A stretch of 64,000 nt of DNA from contig JBBDOX010000011.1 of the NCBI GenBank assembly GCA_040876835.1, positions 1,452 through 65,451 on the forward strand, in the 5' to 3' direction. The translations under genes were made by a program, and so were the position numbers. The notes beneath the pieces were generated by a model. It did no database searches and had not been told where the DNA came from. It worked only from the letters and a program-made list of their open reading frames with translations. The stretch comes from Candidatus Anderseniibacteriota bacterium (GTDB lineage Bacteria; Patescibacteriota; Andersenbacteria; UBA10190). Below, piece by piece: positions 5,159 to 59,535 of the stretch. The stretch's first letter is position 1; each line of letters begins with the position of its first letter.

Positions 5159-5650
5159 ATGAGTAAACAAGGGCCAGAAATGCCACCTCCTAATACGCCT
5201 GAAAATGCTGGTAACAGCGACCGAATAGAGGCGGCTAAGAAGCATATAGTGAACAGCCTGCGGGATATAGATAATTTGCCGCTCGCGGATAAAGAAAACA
5301 TATTGCATCTGGGATACAACCTAAACGACAGCGGAGTAAAATTTGATAAGGAGACCCAGCAGCAGCTTGAGCAACTAGCAGCAAAGCTTCATGACAGAGA
5401 CGAGGCAATACGTGCCCAGCTTGCTCAACTTAAACCTGGAGATGTTATTGTATCTCCTTCAAAGAGCTATAAAGTCGTTAAAGTGGACTATAAAGAAAAG
5501 GCAGAAGATTCTTGGATTACTCTGGAGACTCTTCAGATAAAGCCCCAAGAGCAGGATTCAGCTAGTAAGCCATATCAGATAAATTTGTTTGCCCTGAACC
5601 TGCGGACGGACGAGATTGAACAAATTATACCCAAACCGCTCCAGACCTAA
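5159..5650 (+). CDS. Hypothetical protein
   Basis: 163-aa ORF with an ATG start, intergenic placement and coding-like composition. No recognisable domain. Confidence 0.45.
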   Translation: MSKQGPEMPPPNTPENAGNSDRIEAAKKHIVNSLRDIDNLPLADKENILHLGYNLNDSGVKFDKETQQQLEQLAAKLHDRDEAIRAQLAQLKPGDVIVSPSKSYKVVKVDYKEKAEDSWITLETLQIKPQEQDSASKPYQINLFALNLRTDEIEQIIPKPLQT

Positions 5651-13030: not shown

Positions 13031-13578
13031 GACATGTTCGTATTTAGTCTGCTAAAATATAAAGTATGATTGAAAAGCGAACATATGCCGACCGTCGCGA
13101 GCAAAACATCAAGGCTGTAGCTAAGCGTCGAAGAAAGCTAAAAGCAATGGTGATTGAGTATAAAGGCGGTAAGTGTATGATTTGTGGCTATACTCGTAGT
13201 GCGGCAGCATTAGAGCTTCATCATGTTAATCCCAAGGAAAAATCATTTAGTCTCTCCAAAAGAGGGCTGACGAGATCTTGGGAAAAGACAAAAGCTGAAG
13301 CTGATAAGTGTGTGCTAATCTGCTCGAATTGTCACAAAGAAGTACATGCAGGTGTAACGCAGCTTCCGCAAGTAATTGCGGTCGAATAACTGGGTGAATT
13401 CGGGGAAGCCTTAACTGGTAATCCCGAGCCAAGCCGAAGAGGGTATATAAGTTCTTCGGAAGGTGTAGAGACTAGGAAGTGAGTCCCAACAATATTCTTC
13501 CAGATAGCGCCCAGTACCCTTATATGTTGTAAGGGTGATGATATAGTCCATGCCGGCACGAAAGTGTTGGGTTACATG
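13031..13578 (+). mobile_element. Group I intron (548 nt) in the tRNA-Asn anticodon loop, carrying an HNH homing endonuclease ORF
   Basis: The 5' exon ends in U and the intron ends in G (omega-G). An R-like element GAGACUA (13468-13474) and an S-like element GAUAUAGUCC (13540-13549) can pair as P7 (GACUA/UAGUC). ORF 13066-13389 sits in a peripheral loop. Confidence 0.7.
13066..13389 (+). CDS. HNH homing endonuclease (intron-encoded)
   Basis: 107 aa. CMICG…LELHHVNPKEK…CSNCHKEVH is an HNH/zinc-finger nuclease motif. Basic N-terminus. Confidence 0.75.
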   Translation: MIEKRTYADRREQNIKAVAKRRRKLKAMVIEYKGGKCMICGYTRSAAALELHHVNPKEKSFSLSKRGLTRSWEKTKAEADKCVLICSNCHKEVHAGVTQLPQVIAVE

Positions 13579-13674: not shown

Positions 13675-14175
13675 ATGGCTAACAATATCGCTTTTATTGA
13701 TGGACAGAATTTGCATATGGGAACGACTATGTCAGATAGACCATGGCGCGTGGATTTATCAAGATTTAAAATATACTTGCAGCAGAAGTACAATGTGAAA
13801 GAAGCGTACTACTTTCTAGGATTTACTCAGGACAGCCACCAAGACCTATATGATTCCATTCAAAAAGCTGGGTTTATTTTACAGTTTCGAGAACACAGTT
13901 CAGCTATGTTAGGAAAGAAGAAAGGCAACGTCGATACCGACATCGTGTTTTCAATAATGAAGAAGCTGTATCAGCAAGAAGACTTTGAAAAGGTTGTCTT
14001 AGTATCTGGTGATGGAGATTATAGAATGATGGTTGATTTTTTGATTGATGAGAACCGTTTGAGGAAGATATTATTTCCAGAACAAAGGCGAGCTTCGTCT
14101 CTGTATAAAAAGATTGATCTGAAATATAGGGCTGACTTGAGCGCTCAGGACGTGCGAAGAAAAATTGGACGATAA
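13675..14175 (+). CDS. NYN-domain (LabA-like, PIN-related) protein
   Basis: 166 aa. FIDGQNL…NVDTDIV…VLVSGDGDY matches the NYN/COG1432 acidic-residue pattern. Confidence 0.68.
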   Translation: MANNIAFIDGQNLHMGTTMSDRPWRVDLSRFKIYLQQKYNVKEAYYFLGFTQDSHQDLYDSIQKAGFILQFREHSSAMLGKKKGNVDTDIVFSIMKKLYQQEDFEKVVLVSGDGDYRMMVDFLIDENRLRKILFPEQRRASSLYKKIDLKYRADLSAQDVRRKIGR

Positions 14176-31474: not shown

Positions 31475-31862
31475 AAATAGAATCCTGGTTATGAGATATA
31501 TACGTACATGCTACTCTAGTATTATCGTTTGTCAATATATATTTATCGTTATTTATTATGGCCTACATATAGTGTAGCGCTTGCCTCCTGAAGAATTCAT
31601 CAGACTTTATTGGGTCCAACCCTACCCGTTTTCTCTCGTATGCTGTTGAGATTAGATCGCGGGACGGGTACCTTTTTAAAAATCATTGTTCTCTCTTTCA
31701 TCACACTGGATGGCATCATGCAGGCGCCTGCAAGGGACTGCAGGACGCCTACGAAGGCAAATAGCTAATTACTACAAAAACCATATGGCAAAAGTGAGTA
31801 CACAGTTGACCAGCCGGTAGAAAACTCAGAGATTTATAGAAAAGAGTGGTAGGATACCAGCT

Positions 31863-32024
31863 ATGAAGAACGATCGAATTAAAATCGAAAACCATACCTT
31901 CAGCGGAGCTATCTGGTTCGTCGGCTGGCTGTTTACTATTGGCTTTCTGCATCTTTCCTTTGGGAAAGGCATAATCGCCATCATTATCTGGCCGTACCTG
32001 CTGGGCGTACACTTTGCGGGCTAA
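31863..32024 (+). CDS. Possible 53-aa hydrophobic peptide
   Basis: MKNDRIKIENHTFSGAIWFVGWLFTIGFLHLSFGKGIIAIIIWPYLLGVHFAG in a 660-nt stretch that is otherwise unannotated. Unverified. Confidence 0.3.
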   Translation: MKNDRIKIENHTFSGAIWFVGWLFTIGFLHLSFGKGIIAIIIWPYLLGVHFAG

Positions 32025-32138
32025 GTGCCTGGTGGAGTGGTTGTCGCTAATCTGGTCCGGAACCGGTCGTAGTTTTGGAGCTCAGCGACTTACGGTGCCT
32101 GTTTGTCGTGACTTTTAAAATAGTACATAGTTAAGGAT

Positions 32139-32564
32139 ATGACTACTACACGAAAGATCACCATCTCAACTGTGGTAATTGCGATACTGGCTTTTCCCCT
32201 CACTCGTGTTATCTGGCCGGATGCACCTGATGCTGTGGGGCCCCCTTCTAGTCTGCTCCCGTGGTTCATTGTATTGGGTGCTATTGAGGCCGTTTCCTTC
32301 GGCCTGGGAGTCTCGATGCTTGTCTTCTGCTGGAAAGAGGGGCAGCGTCACTTATGGCCTTTTCTAGCCGTGGTGTGGCTACTGATGTCGTGGTGGCCGC
32401 ACGATAATCTTCACCGGGTGGCTCATGAGAACAACTTTTTGAATCTCCTGATTATTGAATACGTATTTCACGTCACTCTCATGATTGCCGGGTTTATTCT
32501 GGCCCGCTTCCTCGTCAAGAATGTTTTGAGTGAACGCACGGCTAGAAATTCTGAACAAGTTTAG
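32139..32564 (+). CDS. Membrane protein, hypothetical
   Basis: 141 aa with four hydrophobic segments. Confidence 0.5.
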   Translation: MTTTRKITISTVVIAILAFPLTRVIWPDAPDAVGPPSSLLPWFIVLGAIEAVSFGLGVSMLVFCWKEGQRHLWPFLAVVWLLMSWWPHDNLHRVAHENNFLNLLIIEYVFHVTLMIAGFILARFLVKNVLSERTARNSEQV

Positions 32565-32599
32565 CAGCGGGAAATTAAAAATCGTAAAGAGATGAAAGT

Positions 32600-33004
32600 A
32601 TGCTAAGAGAATTCAAGCAATTCGTACTTCGGGGGAACGTTGTCGATCTGGCAGTTGGCGTTGTCGTAGGTGCGGCATTCGGTACGGTTGTAACTGCGCT
32701 GGTGTCGGATGTGCTCACTCCCTTTATTGCGGCTATTGCAAAGGTACCTGACTTCTCAGCCCTCACGTTTACGGTCAATGGTAGTAAGTTTATGATCGGA
32801 CATTTTATTAACGCTCTTATTTCTTTCATACTTGTGGCCGGCACCGTATTCTTTTTTGTTGTTAAGCCTATGAATATGCTTGTAGCGCGCTCACGAAAAG
32901 GATCCTCGATTGACCCAACCACGAAAAAATGTAAGGAGTGCCTGAGTGAAATTCCGGTACAAGCTAAACGTTGCGCGTATTGCGCTCAAGTGGTAAAAGG
33001 GTAG
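32600..33004 (+). CDS. mscL: Large-conductance mechanosensitive channel MscL with C-terminal 4-Cys zinc-ribbon tail
   Basis: 134 aa. …FVLRGNVVDLAVGVVVGAAFGTVVTALVSDVLTPFIAAI… TM1 signature. C-terminal CKEC…CAYC. Confidence 0.85.
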   Translation: MLREFKQFVLRGNVVDLAVGVVVGAAFGTVVTALVSDVLTPFIAAIAKVPDFSALTFTVNGSKFMIGHFINALISFILVAGTVFFFVVKPMNMLVARSRKGSSIDPTTKKCKECLSEIPVQAKRCAYCAQVVKG

Positions 33005-33011
33005 GCGATAG

Positions 33012-33641
33012 ATGACATATTTACCAGAGTTACTAACAGTTGCGTCGATTCATCTCCTTGCAGTTATGAGTCCCGGTCCAGACTTTTTCCTTATTAGCAG
33101 GAATAGTCTAGTGTACTCTCGAAAAGCAGGCATATATTCTGCTTTGGGACTAGCGTTGGGAATAAGTGTACATATAGCATATTCTTTGTTAGGTATTGGT
33201 CTTATTATCTCAAAATCAGTAGTCCTGTTTTCGTTAATCAAGTTTTTAGGAGCTGGGTACCTTATCTATATCGGATACAAGTCTCTTTATGCGCAATCGC
33301 CGGCCGTTCATGCTGCTGATGAAGAAAAGAAAGAAGATTTACCGATCAGCCAGGCGATTCGTGTAGGGTTTCTGACTAATATACTTAACCCCAAAGTAAC
33401 GCTGTTTTTTCTAGCACTCTTCACCCAGGTTATTAACCCCCAGACTCCATTGCCCGTGCAGCTGCTGTATGGATTAGAAATGGCATTCATGACTTTTGCG
33501 TGGTTTGCGGGAGTGGCCACCCTGCTTTCTCATAGCATTGTAAGGAGTCGTTTTGCCTTTATTCAGCAGTATGCTGAGAAGTTCTTTGGTGCAATTCTGA
33601 TTGTTCTGGGTATCAAGGTGGCAATTTCTAGTAGCAAGTAA
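33012..33641 (+). CDS. LysE/RhtB-family amino-acid exporter
   Basis: 209 aa. N-terminal …SPGPDFFLISRNSL… motif. Six TM helices. Confidence 0.78.
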   Translation: MTYLPELLTVASIHLLAVMSPGPDFFLISRNSLVYSRKAGIYSALGLALGISVHIAYSLLGIGLIISKSVVLFSLIKFLGAGYLIYIGYKSLYAQSPAVHAADEEKKEDLPISQAIRVGFLTNILNPKVTLFFLALFTQVINPQTPLPVQLLYGLEMAFMTFAWFAGVATLLSHSIVRSRFAFIQQYAEKFFGAILIVLGIKVAISSSK

Positions 33642-33658
33642 ACCGAGGAACGCAATAA

Positions 33659-34279
33659 ATGAATACTCCTGACAGTAAATTTGAGAAAGCAACAAAAGAA
33701 CTGGAACAACTCGCCTTATCCTACTCAGTACCTAAAGATACTAAGGGATATGAAGAAGTATGGGTGCCAGGGGAGAGTATAAAAATGTGGTCTGTGCCAA
33801 GAAGAACTGCTGAGCTACTTAGGAAATATGTACTAGAATACAAACCAAAAGTAATTCTTGAACTAGGAACATCTTCAGGATACTCAACAATATGGTTGGC
33901 GTCCGGCGCAAAGGAGTATGGCGGTAAAATATACACAGTTGAAATGGCTAGACCAAAAATTGAAATTGCCAGAAAATATATTAAAGAAACGGAGATGGAG
34001 GATGTTGTTGAAATAACTGAAGGTAAAATTGCGGACGTTTTAAAGAATTGGGAAAAGCCAATCGATTTCGTTTTTCTTGATGCAGATAAGATGAACTATA
34101 AACCATACATTGACCAAATAGAGCCCCATCTAAACAAAGGAGCAATTGTTATTGCTGATAACGCTATAGATTTTGCTCATCTGATGAAAGATTACTTAAC
34201 GTATGTTCAGGAAAGCGGGAAATATAAGAGCGAGCTCCTTAACATTGATAACGGATTGATGGTATCAGTTAAGCTATAG
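33659..34279 (+). CDS. Class I SAM-dependent O-methyltransferase (family 3, caffeoyl-CoA OMT-like)
   Basis: 206 aa. …VILELGTSSGYSTIWLA… and …VFLDADKMNYKPY…. Confidence 0.78.
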   Translation: MNTPDSKFEKATKELEQLALSYSVPKDTKGYEEVWVPGESIKMWSVPRRTAELLRKYVLEYKPKVILELGTSSGYSTIWLASGAKEYGGKIYTVEMARPKIEIARKYIKETEMEDVVEITEGKIADVLKNWEKPIDFVFLDADKMNYKPYIDQIEPHLNKGAIVIADNAIDFAHLMKDYLTYVQESGKYKSELLNIDNGLMVSVKL

Positions 34280-34407
34280 CGTGGCGCGAAGCTTGTCGTA
34301 CGCCTGCTCACTCTGGGGCGTGCCAGTGAAGAAAGATGGATAGGCGATGAGCGCAAGAAAAAAGCCCCGTACCTCGTGAAAGGTTCGGGGCCAGGGGATC
34401 TGTTCAC

Positions 34408-35619
34408 TTAGCTTCTGAGAACAGTTTCCAAGTTGTCGAGACCACGCTCGATGTGTTCCAAGTCCTGAGTGAATGTGATCCGCAACACGTTGTCGGTTGG
34501 GTTGTAGCCGTAACCTGACGCTGGCATCATCAGCGTCTTTCGCTCCATCAACTTGCCGGCGAGTGTCAGGTCGTCACCGTCGAAATCGACCTTGAAGGCA
34601 ACGTTGACGCAGCCGCCACGCGGGTAGACCTCTACTACCTCGGGGATGACTGACAGTCTCTCCCGAACGTAGTACTCCTTCTCCCGGAGCGAGGCTTCAA
34701 CCTCAAGGAGAAAGTCCGGCTTCGGCCCATCGAGATCGAGGAGCGCTTGAAGTATCACATCCAGGCTCTTCGGGGCGTTGGCGATGAAACTGCTCATGCG
34801 ACCGATGATGCCGCTACGCCGGGTTCCGAGCAGCTCCGGGGAGGTGATAACCCATCCCACCCTGTGCTGAGCCAGTCCGAATCGTTTGGCAGGACTGTCC
34901 AGTCGAACGACGTGAGGCTGCTCGATCCATTGTTCGTAACCCAGACAGGCCCCCTCGGACGTGAAGCAGTTCTGCATCTCGTCGATGATGATGACGATAT
35001 CCTCCTGAGCCGCTCGCTCGATAACCTCTCTGAGCAAGTTGGCAGGGAAGAAAACGCCGTCCGGGTTGTTGGGGTTTGAGATGATGATGGTGCGAGGCTT
35101 GTCGCTGAACACCTCCTCCATTTCGTTCATGGTCTGCGGCACGTGATGGTGTCCGCTCAGGACGTAATCATACGCGATCACTCGCATTCCGTAATCGCGA
35201 ATGGGGCGCTGGAACATCTGATAGAGAGTGGGGCCGATCACGGCAATGTGTTCGCGACGATACTGCCCAGACTCAAGTCCCATCGCTTCCTCGATGGAGA
35301 GGACGAGACCAGCCCAGGCCCCCGGCACAATGGCGACATTCGCAACGGTGTAGGCAGTATTGTGTTTGCGATTTTCCACTTCCGCGATCTTCTCGCGCAG
35401 TCGAAAGGCTCCAGCCTCGTGGCCGTAAGCCCGTGCCGTCGGCAGCAAATGTTTTTCCATGAATTCCTTCGGGAAGATATCCCAGGGTCCCCGGAAGAAA
35501 ACGCCGGTATCCAGCAGATCTTGGGGCTCCTTGCCCTCGAACATGTCGTGGTAGCTGCAGAACCTGTCGATTGCCTGAATGATATCCGCAGAGTTCCTAC
35601 GAAAATACGTTCGCTGCAT
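34408..35619 (-). CDS. PLP-dependent aminotransferase, class I/II fold
   Basis: 403 aa. NPNNPDG and SPAKRFGLAQHRVGW (Schiff-base Lys). G+C-rich. Confidence 0.72.
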   Translation of the reverse strand: MQRTYFRRNSADIIQAIDRFCSYHDMFEGKEPQDLLDTGVFFRGPWDIFPKEFMEKHLLPTARAYGHEAGAFRLREKIAEVENRKHNTAYTVANVAIVPGAWAGLVLSIEEAMGLESGQYRREHIAVIGPTLYQMFQRPIRDYGMRVIAYDYVLSGHHHVPQTMNEMEEVFSDKPRTIIISNPNNPDGVFFPANLLREVIERAAQEDIVIIIDEMQNCFTSEGACLGYEQWIEQPHVVRLDSPAKRFGLAQHRVGWVITSPELLGTRRSGIIGRMSSFIANAPKSLDVILQALLDLDGPKPDFLLEVEASLREKEYYVRERLSVIPEVVEVYPRGGCVNVAFKVDFDGDDLTLAGKLMERKTLMMPASGYGYNPTDNVLRITFTQDLEHIERGLDNLETVLRS

Positions 35620-35886
35620 GGATTAATCTCCTTGCGTGTGCCCGCCGGCAGGTTGTGGGTTGGAATGTGCAACGCTATTAAGCGCTCCCTGAGGAGCAGC
35701 TGGTCAAAAATGTTTGCTCAACTGCTCTTCAGTGAACTTGTTCGATCATGCAACGTACAATAACAACTCAAACGTGTCAACATAAAAAACTTGACAAAGT
35801 GTTAAATTTTAGCAATAGTGTTTTGCCTATCACAACGGAGTGATAGTGAGCGGAAACAACAGCCCTTATCTTAGGGGGAAGACGTC

Positions 35887-36495
35887 GTGGTCGAATCCAA
35901 AGAGGAGAGTTACAAGGAAGTGATTGCAGAAATCAGGAACCTGCACTGGGAAAATCTTGGACGGAGCGAGTTGCAACAATTGATGTGTCTGTCATACGTT
36001 GCCGCTCTGGAGTTTGCGGAAGCCTTGCGCATCGCTGAGCGGTTGTATACGACTAGCCGCAATGTGCAAGAACTTGTGGCAGGAGAACTGCAGACCAGCA
36101 ACCTCGTCTTCGATGACTACACAGGCCCAGGAGATCACGCCGCATTTCTCAAGCACTTTTTGGAGAAAGGGAATATCCAGCCCCGTGAGGGAGTGCGGAA
36201 GGCAGGAGCTGGATATCTGGAGGTTTGCCACTCTTTATCGGACGAAGTGCGCGCAATGTCTGTGTTCAGCCGTGAAGAGGAGCTGGCCGGAATCTTTGCT
36301 CGTATCCTCGAGGCAGCTGAATGGTTCGGTGCGGACCTCGCGGCGTATCGATACTTCTTGGAGTCGCACATTCGTCTCGACTCCCAAGAAGGAGGGCACC
36401 ACGACCTGACAAAAGAATTCCCAATCGACAGCCGGGTCGGGGACTTCTACAGGGCGAGACTCGACATGTACAGATCCCTGCCAGGCCTCTTCTAG
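35887..36495 (+). CDS. Hypothetical protein (G+C-rich, GTG start)
   Basis: 202-aa ORF with composition like the neighbouring aminotransferase. Helical. Family not assigned. Confidence 0.45.
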   Translation: MVESKEESYKEVIAEIRNLHWENLGRSELQQLMCLSYVAALEFAEALRIAERLYTTSRNVQELVAGELQTSNLVFDDYTGPGDHAAFLKHFLEKGNIQPREGVRKAGAGYLEVCHSLSDEVRAMSVFSREEELAGIFARILEAAEWFGADLAAYRYFLESHIRLDSQEGGHHDLTKEFPIDSRVGDFYRARLDMYRSLPGLF

Positions 36496-36614
36496 CAGTG
36501 AAAAGTACGATACACGCCGCCAACGCTTTCGAGCCGGGGCGGTTTTTCTTTACGCAAGCTCAAAAAAACGTTGGAGTAGCTGGGACATCTAGAGGATGGA
36601 CAGTCGATGGGTAG

Positions 36615-37154
36615 ATGGATCAGTATAAACACATGGTTTCATTGAAAGACACTATTGGAGATTATCAGGTTTTTCTGAACGAAGTTTTAGACCAGGTTAC
36701 AGAAGAAGGATTTGATCTAGCTGACTTTGTACAGCTCGATCATATCTGTTATCGCACAGTTTCTTTAGAGAATTATTATGTTAAGAAAAACGAACTTACA
36801 ACGTTTGCAGAACTGCTTGGTGAAACCATTGTAAGCGAGCGACCAATATCAGCATTCCGCTTACATGATCCTATTATCCATGATAGATGGCGCATAGATA
36901 CAATTGAGCTACCTGCACCAAAAGTTGGCAGTGAATACCCTGAAGGACTCGAGCATGTCGAGTTTGTTCTCTATGACAATATCAAAACTTTCCTTAGCAG
37001 GTACTCACATAAACAGTTCGATTTAAAGGCTGCTGATCGAGGCATTAATCCAGAAGTTGGTTTGAGTCTAGAAAAGCATTCAGTGAAATTTCATTTACTG
37101 AATCTGCCTACGGTTATCTATCTTGAGCACAAGCTTGGTATTACGGAGGTATAG
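36615..37154 (+). CDS. YecM-family protein (VOC-like fold)
   Basis: 179 aa. Alignable by eye to E. coli YecM: DHICYRT, ERPISAFRLHDPI, IELPAPKVGSEYPEGLEHVEFVL, SVKFHLLNL. Confidence 0.62.
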   Translation: MDQYKHMVSLKDTIGDYQVFLNEVLDQVTEEGFDLADFVQLDHICYRTVSLENYYVKKNELTTFAELLGETIVSERPISAFRLHDPIIHDRWRIDTIELPAPKVGSEYPEGLEHVEFVLYDNIKTFLSRYSHKQFDLKAADRGINPEVGLSLEKHSVKFHLLNLPTVIYLEHKLGITEV

Positions 37155-37340
37155 CTGCAGAATAGAGAAGATGTTTATCCAGGCTTAGAGGTTGATATTA
37201 TTTTAAAAAAAGATCAGCGGTCGGGAAAGCTTACGCGAGGGAAGGTGCAGGACATTTTAACGAGTGCGCCATTCCCTAGCTGGGGTATCAAAATGCGTCT
37301 AACCAGTGGCGATGTTGAGCGTGTAGCCCACATTATTTAA
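37155..37340 (+). CDS. YwbE/DUF2196-like small protein lacking a canonical start codon
   Basis: In frame immediately after the YecM TAG. (L)QNREDVYPGLEVDIILKKDQRSGKLTRGKVQDILTSAPFPSWGIKMRLTSGDVERVAHII matches the conserved YwbE core. The only nearby candidate starts are CTG at 37155 or a much later GTG at 37245. Confidence 0.4.
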   Translation: MQNREDVYPGLEVDIILKKDQRSGKLTRGKVQDILTSAPFPSWGIKMRLTSGDVERVAHII

Positions 37341-37440
37341 ACCTCGTAGGCAATTGCTGCTGCAAAAGGCTGGTGAGGGTAAAAATGAAACAGCGTTTGC
37401 TTGACTTAAGAAGCTGTTTCGTGTTTTGGTATATGTTTGT

Positions 37441-38913
37441 ATGAGTAAAGATTCAGTCATTTTACGATTTTCAGAAGTCAGCTTCGAATACGACCACATT
37501 CGACTCCTGCTGGACGAGGTCAGCTTTTCCGTACGCACTGGCAGCCGCATTACATTAATGGGACAGAACGGGGCGGGTAAAAGCTCTCTCTTTAAACTGA
37601 TTACTGGCGAGCTTACTCCGACCGCGGGCCGGATTTCCCGTACCCCCGCTGATGCTACGATCGCTATTTCCCGGCAGGTGATGCCGCAGGAGGCACTGGA
37701 TCTGACGCTGCGCGAATATTTTGCCACTGCTTTTCCGGAAACAGAATATGCGCTCGATAGGTTAATTGCCGAAGTGCTCGATATTGTGCATCTGGACCTG
37801 CCGATCGATATGAAAGTTAGGGAGTGTTCCGGTGGTCAGCAGGCTCGCCTGCTGCTGGCGTACGCTCTGATTCAAAAGCCTGATATTTTATTACTGGATG
37901 AGCCGACGAATAATCTGGATCAGTACGGCATTGATCATCTCACAGCGTTTCTGGTGATGTATGAAAAAACCTGTCTGGTTATTTCCCACGATGCTGACTT
38001 CCTGAACGCCTTCTCTGATGGAGTGTTGTATCTCGACGCCGCAACACGGAAAATCGAGCAGTATACCGGCAACTATACTGATGTAGTGGAGGAGATTAAG
38101 CAGCGACGGGAGCGAGAGAATAAATTAAACGCTCGTATGCAGGCGCAGATTAAAGAAAAGCGATCTCAGGCCGAAGTGTTCGCTCACAAGGGCGGTAAGT
38201 TGCGCGGAGTAGCTAAGCGTATGCGAGAGGCGGCTGAAGAAGCGGAAGAAAATATTGTCAGTGTGCGCACCGAAGATAAATCGATCCGCCCCTTTACGAT
38301 ACCGGCCCAGGAGTTCGATTCATTGTTTGACGGCGCCATTATTAGGTTTAGCCATGTCTCCGCTTGGCATAACAAAAAAGTGATAGAGCGGCCGCTCGAT
38401 CTGACAGTGCGCAAAGGTATACATATGTTGATTGCTGGCCCTAACGGGATCGGGAAGAGTACTCTTCTGGAAAAGCTGGCCTTACGTTCATCGGACGGGG
38501 CTGTGATTCCGGCAGATATAGTAGTCGGCTATTACAAGCAGGATTTTAGCAATCTGGATCCTGATCGCACCGCCCTAGATACTCTTCTAGAAGTTATGAA
38601 AGTAAAAGACGAACGAGTACTGCGGTCGACGGCCGCTGGATTTCTTTTTGATAGCAAACTTCTGGCTAGTCCCATCCGTGCTCTGTCCGAAGGACAGAAG
38701 GGGCTGCTGTCGTTCTGTCGATTAGTCCTTCTGAAACCCGGTCTGCTTATACTGGACGAACCCACCAATCATATTAACTTTCGACACCTTCCAATTATTG
38801 CTAAAGCACTAGATGAATATACGGGAGCAATGGTGATGGTATCTCACATCCCTTCTTTCGTAGAGCAGATCCGGATTAATGAAGTTGTTGATTTGGAGGC
38901 AGGTAGGGTCTAA
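37441..38913 (+). CDS. ABC-F family ATPase (tandem ABC domains, EttA/Uup-like)
   Basis: ATG 37441; the ORF-track start is TTG 37426. Two Walker A sites (GQNGAGKSSL, GPNGIGKSTL) and two LSGGQ-like signatures. No TM domain. Confidence 0.85.
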   Translation: MSKDSVILRFSEVSFEYDHIRLLLDEVSFSVRTGSRITLMGQNGAGKSSLFKLITGELTPTAGRISRTPADATIAISRQVMPQEALDLTLREYFATAFPETEYALDRLIAEVLDIVHLDLPIDMKVRECSGGQQARLLLAYALIQKPDILLLDEPTNNLDQYGIDHLTAFLVMYEKTCLVISHDADFLNAFSDGVLYLDAATRKIEQYTGNYTDVVEEIKQRRERENKLNARMQAQIKEKRSQAEVFAHKGGKLRGVAKRMREAAEEAEENIVSVRTEDKSIRPFTIPAQEFDSLFDGAIIRFSHVSAWHNKKVIERPLDLTVRKGIHMLIAGPNGIGKSTLLEKLALRSSDGAVIPADIVVGYYKQDFSNLDPDRTALDTLLEVMKVKDERVLRSTAAGFLFDSKLLASPIRALSEGQKGLLSFCRLVLLKPGLLILDEPTNHINFRHLPIIAKALDEYTGAMVMVSHIPSFVEQIRINEVVDLEAGRV

Positions 38914-38965
38914 GAGACTAAATTCAAGAGCAGACGGATAAGGAAGGCTGTGCTTTAATGTAAAT

Positions 38966-39331
38966 ATGAGTAGCAGAAAGAAGTTCAAAACAGTTCCTGA
39001 ATACATTGACGCTTTTCCGAAGGATGTGCAGAAGCTTTTACGGGATATGAGAAGAACAATCAGAAAGGCAGCTCCGGATGCGCAGGAGGCGATTGGTTAT
39101 GGGATACCAGCATATAAACTAAGGAGGCCGGTAATATATTTTGCTGCATTCAAGAATCACATCGGGCTTTATCCGATGACTTCGACTGTTAAAAAAGAGT
39201 TTAAAAAAGAATTATCTGTATACAAGCAGGGGAAGGGAACGGTTCAGTTTCCTCTGGATAAACCTATTCCGCTTAGTCTGGTCGCAAGGATTGTGAAGTT
39301 CCGGGTGAAAGAAAATTTAGCAAAGCAGTAA
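38966..39331 (+). CDS. DUF1801 (YdhG-like) family protein, second copy
   Basis: 121 aa. …VPEYIDAFPKDVQKLLRDMRRTI…. Confidence 0.62.
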   Translation: MSSRKKFKTVPEYIDAFPKDVQKLLRDMRRTIRKAAPDAQEAIGYGIPAYKLRRPVIYFAAFKNHIGLYPMTSTVKKEFKKELSVYKQGKGTVQFPLDKPIPLSLVARIVKFRVKENLAKQ

Positions 39332-39346
39332 GACAAATTGCTGTTA

Positions 39347-40144
39347 TTACAGATCGCTGCCCGCGCCTGTTTTCAGATACGTTATAATCCCATCTGCAAT
39401 TCCTTGAATAGACAGCTCCGGCTGACTGACAATAATTTTTCTGTCCTGGGGGCTGGTCAAAAATCCGGTTTCAATAATGACAGCCGGAGTCATGGGATGG
39501 ATAGCGTGCTCGTAGCGACGCCAGTTGAAAGCGTAGTACCCGCTCATGCGTCGGCTGATGCTCGGGTCCCGGTTTAAACCTGTGGCCTGCTCATAGGTTT
39601 TGTATAAAGATTCTTCAAGATAGATTGACCGGCCGGAGTAATCCCGGCGGGGACTGGCAATTTTGAAGCCGGATACCGAGGAGTCTATATTGCCATCGGC
39701 GTGGATGGACACAAATGCATCCGCTATATACCCGGGCGGGACGGTAGCTGGCAGCAGATCCGCTTCAATACCTGCCTCCTTAAGTAATGCTGCTACCTGC
39801 TCTGCGATCTTTAAGACCACGTCTCGCTCATTTGTTCCGCCACCGACGGCTCCACCTCCATTTTTTCGCAGGCCCCCCAGCTCTTCCGGCACTTCATCAT
39901 TACGCCAGTGGCCGGCCTGGATACCAACTCGCAGGGGTCCGGGCGGCCGCTGCCATTTTTCAAGTTCGGAGAGGGTATAACGATCATTGGCTCCTAAAGT
40001 CTCGTCAGGTGAAACTTCTTCAAAGCCAACTTCTTCGGTTGTATATGAGAAAGTAGAGGATACGTCCCGACCGGGCTGTACCAGGTACCAGATAGTGGAA
40101 CCCGCGACTATCAAAAGAGCCAAAAGAAGCAAAAAATACTTCAT
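39347..40144 (-). CDS. N-acetylmuramoyl-L-alanine amidase (Amidase_3) with N-terminal anchor
   Basis: ATG at 40144 gives MKYFLLLLALLIVAGS…. …ISIHADGN… and downstream Zn-ligand context. The ORF-track N-terminal extension is rejected. Confidence 0.7.
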   Translation of the reverse strand: MKYFLLLLALLIVAGSTIWYLVQPGRDVSSTFSYTTEEVGFEEVSPDETLGANDRYTLSELEKWQRPPGPLRVGIQAGHWRNDEVPEELGGLRKNGGGAVGGGTNERDVVLKIAEQVAALLKEAGIEADLLPATVPPGYIADAFVSIHADGNIDSSVSGFKIASPRRDYSGRSIYLEESLYKTYEQATGLNRDPSISRRMSGYYAFNWRRYEHAIHPMTPAVIIETGFLTSPQDRKIIVSQPELSIQGIADGIITYLKTGAGSDL

Positions 40145-40240
40145 ATCACTGAGCGTTGAGAGCTTACGGATATATGTTATGGTTAGAATGCAGATGCCGC
40201 AATCCTTATACAAAAAACCGCCGAGTCTTATTCCCGCTAG

Positions 40241-41791
40241 ATGTTCACCGCTCAGGAGTGCGTTCGGTATCGCAACCTTGCACGTTATATGAACCCGATC
40301 ACATCCTGGCTGCAAAACATCACCATGTACCGGTTGATGTTGTACTTTATGCTGGTCCTGCTTTTGGCTGCGATCCTGCTGAGTGTTGTGGGAGTTTTGC
40401 CTTACAGTCCGTGGAGCATCGCGCTGCAGACAATACTGTTTCCTGGGCTCTGCTGGGGAGTTAACAAAGTAATTTCTCGTAGCTTAAAGCTGCAGTCGAA
40501 CATCGAGTCTTCGCTTATTACCGGTCTGATCCTGTCAGCGATTGTGGGCCCTTTGGTGTTGTCGCGCGACTGGCTGATTTTTCTGGTCATAACCGCTACT
40601 GCAATCGGGTCAAAGTACCTGCTCGCGATCAGACGCAGCCACATCTTTAATCCGGCTGCTTTCGGAGTGGTGGTATCCGCGTTGGTGCTTGGATATCCGG
40701 CTAGCTGGTGGATTGGGAGTGAGGCGTTGTTGCCGGTTATTCTCATCGGAGGCGTGCTGATGATAATAAAGATCAGACGCTGGCATCTCATTGTCAGTTT
40801 TCTGGGGGTCTACCTGGGATTAAGGGCACTTGATGCTTTATTTATTGACGGCCGAAGCCTCACACAGGCGGGCGTCTTGCTGCAAACTCTGGCCACATCT
40901 CCATCAATTCTTTTCTTCTGCTTTGTCATGCTGATCGAACCGCTTACCGCTCCCCAGGTGCGGTCACGCCGTGTGGCGTTTGGTTCGTTTGTAGGAGTAA
41001 CGCTATTTGCGTTTCAGCAATTCCTGGCCTCTGTGCCTTACTCGCTGGAGTTAACGCTCCTGATCGGAAATATCTTTACCCGGATTGTTAATCCTGATTT
41101 CCGGCAGGCATTTGTCTTAAGGCAAAAGGAGCTATTTTCTTCCGCGATCGGCAGTTTCTGGTTCGAACCTACCCGACGATTTACTTTTAAGCCGGGGCAG
41201 TTTCTGGAATATACATTTGCGCACCCTCACCCTGACACTCGCGGCGTTCGAAGGTACTTCAGTATTGCGTCTTCACCGACCGAAGAGAAAGTGCTCTTAA
41301 CTGCCCGGTTTTCTGAGCCCGGCAGCACCTTCAAACAGGCACTGCGGAAGATGGGAGAGGGGGACGAGATTGTCGCCTCGAAAGTGGCGGGTGACTTCGT
41401 GCTGCCGTCAGATACGGCGCAGAAGCTCGTCTTTATTGCCGGCGGCATCGGTATTACCCCGTTTCGCAGCATCGTAAAATATTTGCTTGATACTAATCAA
41501 TCCCGCGATCTTGTATTGCTGTACGGCTCGCGCGAGGAAGGGGATCTGATATTTCGCGATGTTTTTGAGGAGGCCCGCAAAATATTCAACATGAATACTG
41601 TGTATGTAGTGTCCCGGGTGATTGATGAGCAGGTTATACGGAAAGAGATACCGGATTTTACTGAGCGCCTGTTTTATATCTCCGGACCGGAAGGCATGGT
41701 GCAGGGCTTGAGCAAGATGTTAGTTGGTATGGGGGTTTCGCGCCGGCAGATCAGGCGGGATTACTTTCCCGGGTACGCAGAGCAGGGATAG
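40241..41791 (+). CDS. Fusion protein: N-terminal polytopic membrane domain + C-terminal ferredoxin-NADP-reductase-like FAD/NAD(P)-binding module
   Basis: 516 aa. C-terminal RRYFSIASSP (RxYS FAD motif) and GGIGITPF (NAD motif). The membrane domain family is unassigned, with weak RnfD/NqrB-like flavour. Alternative in-frame ATG starts at 40289 and 40325. Confidence 0.6.
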   Translation: MFTAQECVRYRNLARYMNPITSWLQNITMYRLMLYFMLVLLLAAILLSVVGVLPYSPWSIALQTILFPGLCWGVNKVISRSLKLQSNIESSLITGLILSAIVGPLVLSRDWLIFLVITATAIGSKYLLAIRRSHIFNPAAFGVVVSALVLGYPASWWIGSEALLPVILIGGVLMIIKIRRWHLIVSFLGVYLGLRALDALFIDGRSLTQAGVLLQTLATSPSILFFCFVMLIEPLTAPQVRSRRVAFGSFVGVTLFAFQQFLASVPYSLELTLLIGNIFTRIVNPDFRQAFVLRQKELFSSAIGSFWFEPTRRFTFKPGQFLEYTFAHPHPDTRGVRRYFSIASSPTEEKVLLTARFSEPGSTFKQALRKMGEGDEIVASKVAGDFVLPSDTAQKLVFIAGGIGITPFRSIVKYLLDTNQSRDLVLLYGSREEGDLIFRDVFEEARKIFNMNTVYVVSRVIDEQVIRKEIPDFTERLFYISGPEGMVQGLSKMLVGMGVSRRQIRRDYFPGYAEQG

Positions 41792-41852
41792 ACACATACT
41801 ACCTACCTTTTCTGTCCCAGACAGGAATAGTTGTTTACACTAAGGGTATTCT

Positions 41853-42830
41853 ATGGGAGGGATATATCTTGCCGGGCTGGTATTAATACTTTCCTTTGTT
41901 TTAGGGAAGGTATCTGACTTTACTGCTGCCAGCGTTCGCCGTCTCAGCCTCCGTTTTAAAATCAACGAATTCATAACCGCCTTCTTCTTTCTTGGTATTG
42001 CCACCTCTATTCCGGAGATAGCGGTGGCTGTTTTTTCTGCAATTAGAGGAGTGCCTGAACTGTCGTTCGGAAACCTCATCGGTGCTAACATTGTCATTCT
42101 AACATTCATGATTGGTCTGGCCGCTGTCTTTTCGGGCAAGCTCAGTGTTCACAAGGCAATCCACAGAGATGACTTCTTTTTAACGCTGATGCTGGTCGGA
42201 TTGCCCATCCCCTTTATTCTCAACGGCTATATCTCCAGAGTTGAAGGATTAGTCATGATGGTTGCCTATGGATATTTTCTCCTTCACTTTTTCTGGCGTC
42301 GGCGGGCATATCGCAAGCAATCAAAGGCAACCCATCTTCGCGGTACAGTCCAGCGGGATATTGCCATATTTCTGGTTTCTTCAATAGTTTTGCTCATTGT
42401 CTCTTATGTTTTGGTACAGGTATCGCTAACGGCTGCGGCTGCCTTGGGTATACCAATCCTGGTTGTGGGATTGCTCATGATATCTCTCGGCACGAATGTG
42501 CCGGAGGTTTCATTTGTCTTGAATCAGGCTTCGCGTCGGTATACGAAAGATAAAGATATTGTTACAGGCGTTCTGTTGGGTAACGTTGTACTCAACACCC
42601 CTACGCTAGGTCTCTTGGCACTTATCCGCCCCTTCTCGATTGGGAACCTGCAGATGGTATGGGTATCGGCTGCGTTCCTTGCAGTTGTATTGTATGCCAC
42701 TTGGGTCTTCTTTCTTTCGGAAAGAAAGTTAACCAGGCGCGAGGGCATACTGCTTCTTCTGTTGTACGCATTGTTTGTTGGATACCAGCTTGGACTATTC
42801 AGCAGACTTTTTCCTGGTTCTTTTTCTTAA
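41853..42830 (+). CDS. Sodium/calcium exchanger (CaCA, YrbG-like) membrane protein
   Basis: 325 aa. Two alpha-repeats: …SIPEIAVAVFSA…GNLIGANIV… and …GTNVPEVSFVLNQA…GNVVLN…. Confidence 0.75.
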   Translation: MGGIYLAGLVLILSFVLGKVSDFTAASVRRLSLRFKINEFITAFFFLGIATSIPEIAVAVFSAIRGVPELSFGNLIGANIVILTFMIGLAAVFSGKLSVHKAIHRDDFFLTLMLVGLPIPFILNGYISRVEGLVMMVAYGYFLLHFFWRRRAYRKQSKATHLRGTVQRDIAIFLVSSIVLLIVSYVLVQVSLTAAAALGIPILVVGLLMISLGTNVPEVSFVLNQASRRYTKDKDIVTGVLLGNVVLNTPTLGLLALIRPFSIGNLQMVWVSAAFLAVVLYATWVFFLSERKLTRREGILLLLLYALFVGYQLGLFSRLFPGSFS

Positions 42831-45501: not shown

Positions 45502-45612
45502 TAGGGAAGAATCGCGCTGTTTATTGATGAGCATACACAAAGCTATTCCGTTGCTGATCCGGCTTGAAGACTATCCTGGACAAGGACCCTAAAGAGACAT
45601 AGCCTCAAATTT

Positions 45613-45713
45613 ATGAGCAAGAAAAAAATACTGGTTACCGGGGGAGTAAGAAGGCGAGCTATGTTACCGGTGCTGCCTATACCGTAGACGGTGGTGAGTC
45701 TATCTCTCGTTAA
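45613..45713 (+). pseudogene. Remnant of a short-chain dehydrogenase (SDR) gene: N-terminus fused to C-terminus after a large internal deletion plus frameshift
   Basis: MSKKKILVTGG (SDR NAD-binding start) sits in one frame. …KASYVTGAAYTVDGGESISR* (SDR C-terminal motif) sits in the +2 frame. The two are joined at a run of five G near a shared GTTACCGG. Confidence 0.5.
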
Positions 45714-45802
45714 CTAGATCCTACTGTTTAGAAAATATCAGTGAGGGCTGTTAGCTTCGCCGGTGGTAAATTTTCTTAACTTATGTAGACTGGATTACTA
45801 CT

Positions 45803-46762
45803 ATGAGTGAACAGACAAATGCAATTGAGCTGCGAGGACTGCGTAAGTCTTTTAAAAACACTGAAGTTTTAAAAGATATTAATTTGGACGTTGCGCGCGG
45901 CAGTGTCCTGGCGCTGCTGGGGCCTAACGGTGCAGGAAAAACCACAACGGTTCGAATTCTCAGCACCCTCTTGTCGTTCGATGGCGGGGAAGCTGTCGTG
46001 AACGGGTATAGCGTGAAGAAGGACCCTAAGCATGTTAGGGCGAGCATCGGCTTAACGGGTCAGTATGCGGCCGTTGACGAATATCTGACGGGCAGACAAA
46101 ATCTGGAAATGATGGGGCGCCTGTATCATTTAAGCCGCTCCGACACCCGACGTCGAACTGAGGAGTTGCTGACACAATTTGATCTGCAGGATGCGGCAGG
46201 GAGAATTGTAAAAACATATTCTGGTGGCATGCGCCGTCGTCTTGACCTGGCCGCTAGTCTCATCGCCACCCCGCCGGTTCTTTTTCTGGATGAACCAACA
46301 ACCGGGCTTGATCCCAGAAGTCGCCTCGCTATGTGGGAGATTATTCAAAACCTAGTGAAGGCCGACGTTACTATTCTGCTCACTACCCAGCACCTAGAAG
46401 AAGCTGATCGACTGGCCGACCGCATTGCCGTCCTTGATCATGGCCGGATTATCGCTGAAGGCACTTCCAACGAACTCAAAGACCGTGTGGGTAAAGAACG
46501 TCTGGATCTGGTGGTGGAGAATGCAGCATCGTTTGAAGCAGCTATACGTATTTTTGGCAAAGAGATTATGCAGTCTGACGGGGATCGGCGACTTGTGAGC
46601 GTTGTTATTGAGGACGCGGTGCGCGATATCCGGCGGATGCTGGATGTGGCTAGTGAGAATAAGATTGGAATTGAATCGCTATCAATGCACAAACCAACGC
46701 TTGATGATGTGTTCCTGCAGTTTACCGGGCACGAAGCGGAAGCAGCTAATAACAACGAATAG
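45803..46762 (+). CDS. ABC transporter ATP-binding protein (DrrA-like, ABC-2 exporter)
   Basis: 319 aa. Walker A GPNGAGKTT, signature YSGGMRRRL, Walker B LFLDEPTTGLD. Confidence 0.85.
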   Translation: MSEQTNAIELRGLRKSFKNTEVLKDINLDVARGSVLALLGPNGAGKTTTVRILSTLLSFDGGEAVVNGYSVKKDPKHVRASIGLTGQYAAVDEYLTGRQNLEMMGRLYHLSRSDTRRRTEELLTQFDLQDAAGRIVKTYSGGMRRRLDLAASLIATPPVLFLDEPTTGLDPRSRLAMWEIIQNLVKADVTILLTTQHLEEADRLADRIAVLDHGRIIAEGTSNELKDRVGKERLDLVVENAASFEAAIRIFGKEIMQSDGDRRLVSVVIEDAVRDIRRMLDVASENKIGIESLSMHKPTLDDVFLQFTGHEAEAANNNE

Positions 46763-53355: not shown

Positions 53356-53425
53356 GGTGCTATTTACCGACGAGACACTTAAAAGTTTCCAGGGAAGCAT
53401 ATTTACCATTAATTCATATAACAAT

Positions 53426-53623
53426 ATGGAAGGAACAATTAAGACGCTAACAGAAAAGGGATTTGGATTTATCTCCCGCGAAGGTGAGTCAAAAGACCTC
53501 TTCTTCCACTCAAAGGAACTTCAGGGTGTAACATTTGATGAACTCCGGGTTGGAGATGCGGTTACCTTCGAAGTTATTGATACTGAAAAAGGTCCAGCAG
53601 CTACCAGCGTTTCACGCGCGTAA
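53426..53623 (+). CDS. cspA: Cold-shock protein (CspA family)
   Basis: ATG 53426. MEGTIKTLTEKGFGFISREGESKDLFFH… with RNP1/RNP2 motifs. Confidence 0.9.
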   Translation: MEGTIKTLTEKGFGFISREGESKDLFFHSKELQGVTFDELRVGDAVTFEVIDTEKGPAATSVSRA

Positions 53624-53635
53624 GAATGCATGAAG

Positions 53636-53667
53636 AAAAACCACCCTTTCAACAAAGGGTGGTTTTT
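53636..53667 (+). terminator. Rho-independent terminator of csp
   Basis: AAAAACCACCCTTT-CAACA-AAGGGTGGTTTTT perfect hairpin plus a U-run. Confidence 0.75.
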
Positions 53668-53689
53668 AATTCAGCAACCTACCCGTTAG

Positions 53690-53816
53690 CCGCCCGTGTG
53701 GCAGCGACGTGGAGATTCTGCTGAATCCCGCCTTGTCGGCTGTCCTGATGTTCCTTTCGACTGTAATTGTGGCCGTAAATACTCTGCTTCTCCGCTGGCA
53801 GATGCTAACGCTCTAG
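53690..53816 (+). pseudogene. 3'-terminal fragment of a second P1B-type ATPase gene
   Basis: Encodes …EILLNPALSAVLMFLSTVIVAVNTLLLRWQMLTL*. Clearly homologous to the CopB C-terminus …GIVLNPAVSAVFMSLSTVIVAVNAVMLRRQSLQ*. No upstream gene body. Confidence 0.6.
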
Positions 53817-53907
53817 CGGAACTGTTACCGCGTTTATATAGTAGTGACTGTAGCGGCAAAAAAGCCGCGATGGCTTGTGTATTAAAATATGAAAGAAGGT
53901 GATCTAT

Positions 53908-54108
53908 ATGCATGATATGAAAAATGCTATGAAGCATCTGCGCGAACATCAGACGTACCCCGCCACCAAGGCCGAGCTCGTTGAAGCGTGCAATAACCTG
54001 TCTGACTTTACGGAAGCCGATAAGAATGAATTTGCCAGTAAGTTGCCCGACCGCACGTACGACTCAGCTGAAGAGGTAATGGAAGCCATGGAGTGGCAGG
54101 TGGCGTAA
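53908..54108 (+). CDS. DUF2795-family small protein
   Basis: An RBS AAGGTG sits 7 nt before ATG 53908. MHDMKNAMKHLREHQTYPATKAELVEACNN…. Confidence 0.55.
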   Translation: MHDMKNAMKHLREHQTYPATKAELVEACNNLSDFTEADKNEFASKLPDRTYDSAEEVMEAMEWQVA

Positions 54109-54120
54109 ATACTAGGCACA

Positions 54121-54167
54121 AGAAAACACGCATGACGGCAGATAATCGTCATTGTGTTTTCTGTTTT
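54121..54167 (+). terminator. Rho-independent terminator
   Basis: AGAAAACACGCATGACG…CGTCATTGTGTTTTCT hairpin followed by GTTTT. Confidence 0.55.
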
Positions 54168-54236
54168 GAACTGCTGACAGGATGCTCTTGTTGGTAGTAT
54201 GCGCTGTCACCATACTGGAAGCATAAGCTCTTTGTT

Positions 54237-58522: not shown

Positions 58523-59107
58523 ATGCCCAAAGCAAAGACCTCTCGGACTACGGCTATTCGTAGCCTGAAAGATGCAGCGAGAGTCGTCGGGAAGATCGGG
58601 CAGCTCAAGCGTAATCTGGAGCGTGTGACGGTCCAGATGAATGAGAAGATCGAGAAGATCAAGCAGCCGTACACGGAGAAGGCTGGCGGCTACATCGCCG
58701 AGCTGGAGCCGCTGATGGAAGCCATGTTCCGTTACGCTCAGGGCAATCGTCCTCAGCTGACCGACAATGGTGAGCGACAAACCGTCAAGCTGCCGACGGG
58801 ATCCTTTTACTGGCGGAAGACGGGTAAGTCCGTTCAGTTCACGGGGAGTGACGATGAGCTTGTGGATTTGCTCAAGGCACTCGGACTTTCGGACTGGGTT
58901 CGGGTCGTGGAGGAACCGAACCGGGAACGCATGTTGCAGGAAGAGGAGAAAGCCCAGGCGGTGGCCGGCGTGACGATCGAACAGCGCGAAGTGTTTTACG
59001 TCAAGCCGGCAGCAAGCATGGCTGCCGTGACGGTCACTCCCGAGGGCGATCATCTGAAGATCGTGCCAAAGGATCCCCGGAAGCAGAAGGATAAGAAATC
59101 TGCCTAA
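58523..59107 (+). CDS. gam: Bacteriophage Mu Gam-like host-nuclease inhibitor (Ku-like DNA-end-binding) protein
   Basis: ATG 58523 after an AAGGAAC RBS. Alignable by eye with Mu Gam: …VKLPTGSFYWRKTGKSVQFTGSDDELVDLLKALGLSDWVRVVEEPNRE…AVAGVTIEQREVFYVKP…. G+C-rich. Confidence 0.7.
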   Translation: MPKAKTSRTTAIRSLKDAARVVGKIGQLKRNLERVTVQMNEKIEKIKQPYTEKAGGYIAELEPLMEAMFRYAQGNRPQLTDNGERQTVKLPTGSFYWRKTGKSVQFTGSDDELVDLLKALGLSDWVRVVEEPNRERMLQEEEKAQAVAGVTIEQREVFYVKPAASMAAVTVTPEGDHLKIVPKDPRKQKDKKSA

Positions 59108-59213
59108 AGGGCTGATCCCACCCCACATTCAAGGACGAGTGTGGTTTTTTCATGCGTAACTGTGTGATGCAGATGATATTGACTGTGTCCGGTAATATTG
59201 AGACGCTTCATGT

Positions 59214-59408
59214 ATGGAAGAACAGGCTCCTCAAAAAAGCTCAGGCTATGGCAAACGGCCAATGTGGCAATGGCTGCTGATATATCTGGTGGCTGGAGCA
59301 ATAGTATATGGACTTATCTACTACTTTGTTATCGCCAAAGAGGGCGGTTACGGTACTGGCGAGAGCGTCAACCCCACCGACCAGGATATAGAGCAGGGAT
59401 TGTATTAA
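59214..59408 (+). CDS. Small membrane protein, hypothetical
   Basis: 64 aa with one TM helix (WQWLLIYLVAGAIVYGLIYYFVIA). Confidence 0.35.
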   Translation: MEEQAPQKSSGYGKRPMWQWLLIYLVAGAIVYGLIYYFVIAKEGGYGTGESVNPTDQDIEQGLY

Positions 59409-59535
59409 CTGGGAGAAGATACTCCCGGCTAGACAAAACGACTGAAATGCCGCAGTATTGACCTAGCTTAGAGGGAATTAGCGCAGATGTATAAGCTTGG
59501 CCCCATTAGATGGGGTCGTTACCTTTTCAATAGTC

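Follow-up and report, generated by a model that had tools for sequence, protein, structure and literature searches.

The locus analysed here raises a simple question. Directly behind the stop codon of a yecM gene, and in the same reading frame, lies a coding sequence for a small protein of the YwbE/DUF2196 family which has no canonical start codon of its own. Is this a gene which is translated in an unusual way, or is it something else? An earlier note on the sequence had offered three explanations: initiation at a CTG codon, programmed read-through of the yecM stop, and a sequencing or point error. Initiation at the CTG is possible, but all three miss the root cause, which is a synteny breakpoint within the first 9 nt of ywbE. 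On balance we consider it likely that the ywbE frame is what was left when a lineage-specific rearrangement recently cut off the 5' end of the gene, and that it is probably a pseudogene. Below, “the window” denotes the whole stretch of 64,000 nt of DNA that was analysed; the features of the locus are presented in Table 1.

Table 1. Features of the yecM-ywbE-abcF region (window coordinates).
Feature	Position	Strand	Basis and remarks
yecM (VOC-fold YecM family), 173 aa from ATG 36633, stop TAG	36633..37154	+	Pfam PF06185
Shine-Dalgarno-like GGAGGT	37145..37150	+	Read from the sequence; within yecM codons ACG GAG GTA (T-E-V)
Junction hexamer TAG CTG: yecM stop and sole candidate, non-canonical start	37152..37157	+	Homologous to neither flank
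5'-truncated ywbE/DUF2196 remnant (probable), 61 codons and TAA	37155..37340	+	Pfam PF09962; without the family ATG-AAY-GGN (M-N-G) and without its own upstream region
Codons CCT AGC TGG (P-S-W), family H-[SP]-[RH]	37275..37283	+	Alignment of 269
Codon ATG (M), family V, predicted beta-strand 3 (GIKVRL)	37293..37295	+	V 268/269, M 0
Codon GAG (E), family G, motif V-G-R-V	37317..37319	+	G 267/269, E in 1
abcF, ABC-F ATPase gene, syntenic anchor common to the window and L003	37441..38913	+	91% aa identity

The junction and its support in the assemblies

Read directly from the window sequence, GTA TAG at 37149-37154 closes the yecM ORF, and the frame which follows, CTG CAG AAT AGA GAA GAT ..., is unbroken until a TAA at 37338-37340; its translation is LQNREDVYPGLEVDIILKKDQRSGKLTRGKVQDILTSAPFPSWGIKMRLTSGDVERVAHII. 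The coordinates which the earlier note had given for the yecM stop (37152-37154) and for the DUF2196/YwbE frame right after it (37155-37340) all agree with this reading. It is also correct that no ATG, GTG or TTG precedes the DUF2196 core, which leaves CTG 37155 as the only candidate; the first canonical in-frame start 3' of the yecM TAG is the GTG codon 37245, midway through the domain. The naming of the two domains is supported as well. The yecM product matches PF06185 over nearly the full length of the profile with 97.9 bits (cut-off 25), and the ywbE frame matches PF09962 with 79.6 bits (E=1.6e-22, cut-off 25), covering profile positions 3-61 of 61, which is much more than chance would give. 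A further in-frame ATG upstream of yecM, at 36615, would make its product 179 aa long.

The GGAGG at 37145-37149 ends 5 nt before the CTG at 37155-37157, and CTG 37155 has both a Shine-Dalgarno-like motif within 4-9 nt and a stop codon close by. The motif may exist only because of what yecM encodes, since the pair E/D-V/I is kept in YecM relatives; in one of them, L021, it is written GAG GTT. That yecM and ywbE share one frame would by chance alone occur in 1 of 3 cases. Homology to YecM proteins stops at the V codon (GTA, 37149-37151), and homology to the ywbE gene of the relative L003, described below, begins with the CAG at 37158.

An artefact is in our judgement highly improbable, whether it arose in assembly, as a chimera of two loci, or in sequencing, as a wrong base call to which the TAG or the absence of a start would be due. 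In its favour, the source is a metagenome-assembled genome and the composition of yecM is unlike that of its neighbours. However, the Logan assembly of run SRR27977662 (contig L063) has the same bases: it is 100% identical to the window over 10,540 bp (31615-42154), junction included, a comparison in which both assemblies may rest on the same reads. Assemblers make chimeras in sequence common to both sides, and the join lies outside any such sequence; the closest relatives of both sides are found in Patescibacteria. The point error proposed in the earlier note meets a further difficulty, as yecM now occupies the place of three codons of ywbE and of its upstream region, and no single-base change restores the gene. 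The yecM-ywbE junction is real and not an assembler-specific artefact.

Existing annotations disagree about the frame. In GenBank (NCBI PGAP) it is a 61-aa “YwbE family protein” (P0001, MEX0649806.1) which reads M and then QNRED..., starting at CTG 37155, and the gene in front of it is a 173-aa “VOC family protein” (P0121, MEX0649805.1) with its start at M7 (36633). The Logan gene caller, contrary to PGAP, has no gene between yecM and abcF (L063 5541-5826, equal to window 37155-37440). Exact sequence look-ups of the two GenBank proteins returned no record, and a look-up of the 179-aa yecM ORF found the Logan contig L063.

A synteny breakpoint at codon 4 of ywbE

A comparison of orthologous loci had been suggested in the earlier note as a way to find out whether the two genes are fused or separate, and it was indeed informative. 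The one syntenic relative is a 1,345-bp Logan contig from a different run, L003, in which ywbE is a separate gene with an ATG start. Its ywbE product shows 88% amino acid identity with the remnant, and it is followed by the ABC-F gene, for which the identity given in Table 1 refers to the first 165 residues. In a BLASTN comparison of the window with L003 the homology begins at codon 4 of ywbE (L003 590 = window 37158) and continues unbroken over 37158-37940, where it takes in ywbE, the intergenic stretch and abcF as far as the contig reaches. Nothing in the window corresponds to the 589 bases of L003 upstream of codon 4, in which a divergent gene of 136 aa and a spacer of 170 nt are located. 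Since the homology starts exactly at codon 4, a synteny breakpoint is located within 37149-37157. Relative to L003 the ywbE of the window has lost its expression signals: the ATG, three codons and the upstream region are absent. The earlier note had reasoned that an ATG-initiated ortholog would imply a local sequence error; L003 has the ATG, but a breakpoint which spans three codons and the upstream region is not such an error.

The adjacency of yecM and ywbE is unique to the window among the loci which were compared. With a YecM alignment as the query, 32 yecM loci were obtained from GTDB representative genomes, mostly of Saccharimonadia and other Patescibacteria (a single YecM protein, used as the query of genome contigs, gave no confirmed relative), and in none of the 32 was there a DUF2196 gene within 3 kb of yecM. 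In the Andersenbacteria MAG GCA_040881505.1 both genes are present, yecM (L005) and ywbE (L001), on separate contigs. Seen from the other side of the locus, neither ywbE nor yecM was upstream of the abcF relatives in any of 27 metagenomic loci (29-82% identity). A degenerate pattern with fixed spacing across the junction (KFHLLNLP, 85 nt, DIILKKDQ), which was validated on the window, gave 0 matches in the JGI metagenomes.

The incoming partner in such a rearrangement may well have been yecM. Its product resembles the other members of the YecM family (PF06185), predicted metalloenzymes with the VOC fold: it is near full-length, 62-68% identical to the YecM proteins of about 177 aa in Saccharimonadia and Andersenbacteria, and retains all the columns which are invariant across 12 aligned sequences (the window and 11 relatives). 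It differs from most of its close relatives at the C-terminus, where it ends in ...ITEV whereas they continue with R/K-D-G-Q and then stop; the YecM proteins of L009, L024 and P0172 likewise stop after the V. It also differs in composition. The GC3 of yecM is 0.33 and its GC content 0.39, against a mean GC3 of 0.50 (sd 0.08) in the window, which places it second lowest among 68 ORFs, and the genes on its two sides have GC3 values of 0.63 (upstream) and 0.51. As far as composition can tell, the low GC3 of yecM is consistent with a recent horizontal acquisition.

We propose the following course of events. In this Candidatus Andersenbacteria lineage a rearrangement would have set the 3' end of yecM against codon 4 of an older ywbE-abcF locus. 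Most likely a segment of foreign composition which carried yecM would have come in by insertion, or by recombination, and would have deleted the upstream region of ywbE together with its ATG and the M-N-G codons (the first 9 nt). The lost upstream region probably carried a promoter of the leaderless type. The six bases TAG CTG would have been left at the junction, where they supply the stop of yecM. The resulting 61-codon ywbE frame would be without a promoter or a canonical start of its own, young and still open, and whatever expression remains would depend on co-transcription with yecM in combination with inefficient CUG initiation or reinitiation. That the beheaded state of ywbE is the derived one is suggested by the conservation of the N-terminus throughout the family, rather than by a dated phylogeny.

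Some observations on the sequences at the join should be mentioned. A GGN-CAR is found at both ends, in the R/K-D-G-Q-stop of YecM (L006, L008, L010, L025 and others) and in the M-N-G-Q of ywbE (L001-L003), and the join may have been guided by microhomology at this shared sequence; it should be noted that a simple crossover at GGN-CAR would not give the junction of the window, GTA TAG CTG CAG. A search for flanking direct or inverted repeats which would mark a mobile element gave only short repeats at chance level. The hexamer TAGCTG occurs four times in 700 bp around yecM and ywbE, at 36577, 36718, 37152 (the junction) and 37277, the last overlapping the codons of the H→P and R→W replacements described below. 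This local cluster is probably due to chance, since 33 copies were found in the whole window and 30 were expected.

Aberrant residues in the ywbE frame

The closest relatives of ywbE are 78-88% identical to the remnant. They are 64-66 aa long and start with M-N/D/T-G-Q-N-R-E-D from an ATG, or have short N-terminal extensions. The relatives P0002-P0012 start at an ATG with M-N-G-Q-N-R, and an ATG-started ORF of about 65 aa is what the window ywbE does not have. M1 and G3 reach a conservation of 90% or more in an alignment of 120 DUF2196 sequences. Where the closest relatives read ATG AAY GGN (M-N-G), the window reads GTA TAG CTG (V-stop-L), and the loss of the ywbE start is therefore not a point change.

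The remainder of the frame was compared with 119 close and 150 diverse DUF2196 members aligned to the window (n=269). The near-invariant residues of the core H-x-[RH]-G-I-K-V-R-L ... V-G-R-V are not kept in the window ywbE, which has P, W, M and E in four of these positions. The first position of P-S-W is H in all 269 relatives and P in none; at the third, 265 of 269 have R or H and no relative has W. The counts for M and E are found in Table 1. When the four substitutions were reverted in silico the Pfam score increased from 79.6 to 100.0 bits, a cost of 20.4 bits for the replacements, and close relatives score 103-109 bits. In an AlphaFold model of the relative P0002 (pLDDT 94.6) the protein is a four-stranded beta-barrel of the SH3/Tudor type. 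The H and the R are located in the loop before strand 3, the V in strand 3 and the G at the start of strand 4. No significant similarity to DUF2196 was detected among solved structures, and a literature search on YwbE/DUF2196 gave nothing relevant. Natural fusions of DUF2196 were seen with NUDIX (N-terminal), with a DsbA-like thioredoxin and with TipAS (C-terminal), and there are tandem copies too (P0331, P0255, P0372, P0245, P0267). A second copy of ywbE was not present in the window.

As four invariant residues have been replaced, the ywbE remnant may be out of the constraint which acts on the family. Alternatively, the function of the protein may have changed with these substitutions. As a member of the YwbE/DUF2196 family (PF09962, TIGR03833) the window copy thus has both sides: it matches nearly the whole profile and is close to the L003 ortholog, and it is unlike the family in being without the ATG, the M-N-G and the upstream region, in the replacements H→P, R/H→W, V→M and G→E, and in a score about 20-30 bits under that of close relatives.

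The comparison with L003 was also used to count changes on each branch. When amino acid changes were polarised with outgroups, ywbE had 5 changes unique to the window against 1 unique to L003 in 60 residues, a difference which is not significant alone; in abcF the numbers were 5 and 4 in 166 residues. The pairwise dN/dS between the window and L003 was 0.04 for ywbE and abcF alike. It should be noted that dS is saturated (about 1.4-1.7), so this low ratio mostly reflects the shared history before the event and is uninformative for dating. In spite of the four replacements the ywbE frame has neither a frameshift nor an internal stop. After about 7 random substitutions some 72% of such sequences would still be free of stops, and the open frame is therefore no evidence of function.

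The locus shares with 5'-truncated pseudogenes a breakpoint inside the coding sequence, the loss of start and (probably) promoter, and, as far as the small counts can tell, faster change at constrained sites on the window branch only. It differs from them in having no frameshift or internal stop, and in having a fortuitous Shine-Dalgarno sequence and a near-cognate codon which could permit some expression. The frame would still be open because of the youth of the event.

Start and stop signals and the possible translation of the ywbE frame

Long ORFs cover 83% of the window, and TAG is an ordinary stop codon there, ending 26 of the 68 long ORFs. A reassignment of TAG was considered and rejected, as so many ORFs in a gene-dense window terminate on it. 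Also rejected was an RNA structure that would stimulate read-through: the fold around the stop is no better than that of shuffled sequences (z = +0.91). The only tRNA found in the window was a tRNA-Ser(UGA), and none with a CUA anticodon was detected in it.

These results bear on the second explanation of the earlier note, in which TAG 37152 would be read through, by a programmed mechanism or by a suppressor, to give a 241-aa YecM-DUF2196 fusion protein. The two ORFs share a frame, a C follows the stop, a context in which termination is weak in E. coli, and DUF2196 is fused to other enzymes elsewhere (NUDIX-DUF2196, DUF2196-DsbA, DUF2196-TipAS). However, the shared frame has a 1-in-3 chance of arising by coincidence, neither the best 120 matches to a concatenated query nor a set of 150 diverse DUF2196 representatives contained a YecM-DUF2196 fusion, and the arrangement is conserved nowhere in the 32 yecM loci and the JGI metagenomes. 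Since TAG is an ordinary stop, no suppressor tRNA was found in the window and the RNA is unstructured, read-through above background is unlikely, and a fusion protein made in this way we find hardly credible.

The start signals in the window point in another direction. A Shine-Dalgarno-like motif precedes the first start of only 11 of the 68 long ORFs. A hexamer TAnnnT ending 6-7 nt before the ATG was found in 15 of 57 ORFs which start with ATG, where about 1.6 were expected; examples of this -10-like sequence are upstream of the starts at 5159, 8704, 13066, 13675, 22632, 53071 and 63154. The hexamer counts suggest that mRNAs without a leader, or with a very short one, are widespread in this Andersenbacteria genome. 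In front of ywbE the sequence is TAGTCT in L003, at 6 nt, and TATTCT in L001, at 7 nt. As both loci have a leaderless-type TAnnnT before ywbE, we infer that the event probably removed a promoter and a 5'-terminal AUG from the ywbE of the window.

Two other observations in the window are noted for completeness. A group I catalytic intron (RF00028; 73.2 bits with a gathering score of 50, full model) is found at 13335-13570 on the + strand, where it overlaps the 3' end of the ORF 13066-13389 and lies upstream of the ORF 13675-14175; no rRNA or tRNA gene was detected at its site. Four stretches of 0.7-1.1 kb are without any ORF of at least 90 aa (45502-46601, 53356-54236, 58675-59496 and 31475-32138), and at the Rfam gathering threshold these four gave no match.

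The remaining explanation of the earlier note is initiation at CTG 37155. In its strong form ywbE would be a functional gene whose truncation is tolerated, with yecM providing transcription and ribosomes, and translation would start at the CTG either directed by the Shine-Dalgarno-like sequence or by termination and reinitiation at the adjacent yecM TAG. The spacing of 5 nt from GGAGG is near-ideal, TAG and CTG are contiguous in the classic geometry of translational coupling, and the frame is intact over 61 codons with 79.6 bits against PF09962, only two profile positions being lost. PGAP has annotated the start in this way, and CUG ranks in the top four of the near-cognate starts of E. coli (bioRxiv 10.1101/063800). 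The same study gives an activity of CUG initiation of about 1-2% of that of AUG in E. coli. Further points against a functional gene are that starts led by a Shine-Dalgarno sequence are a minority in the window, that the GGAGG arises from conserved yecM codons, and that the independent Logan gene caller called nothing. No ortholog has the same start or arrangement; the orthologs use an ATG three codons upstream. The replacement of four family-invariant residues speaks against it as well. The locus is also unlike known cases of translational coupling in that its start would be CUG and not AUG, GUG or UUG, in that the arrangement is absent from orthologs, and in that it was born of a breakpoint and did not evolve as an overlap. 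A functional ywbE made from the CTG is for these reasons possible but rather unlikely.

A weaker form says only that the truncated ywbE is still made, by reinitiation at the CUG aided by GGAGG or by partial read-through into a YecM-DUF2196 fusion. This we regard as doubtful. If true, it would mean a freshly captured small protein whose core is altered (P/W/M/E) and whose initiation is non-canonical, and this in a Patescibacteria genome which otherwise seems to favour leaderless AUG starts.

The reading which we prefer, a beheaded remnant, implies that the locus is probably an ordinary gene remnant rather than a new translation trick, and a new biological question would arise only if expression from the CUG were demonstrated. 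It also calls for caution with the annotation. GenBank lists MEX0649806.1 as a “YwbE family protein” which is intact and starts at a CTG. Since the comparative evidence describes it as 5'-truncated with damaged invariant residues, a pseudogene flag, or at the least a mark of doubt, is probably warranted. For the biology of the organism the locus would be a clean and datable case of how the insertion of a gene in a streamlined genome of the candidate phyla radiation (CPR) beheads a small neighbour.
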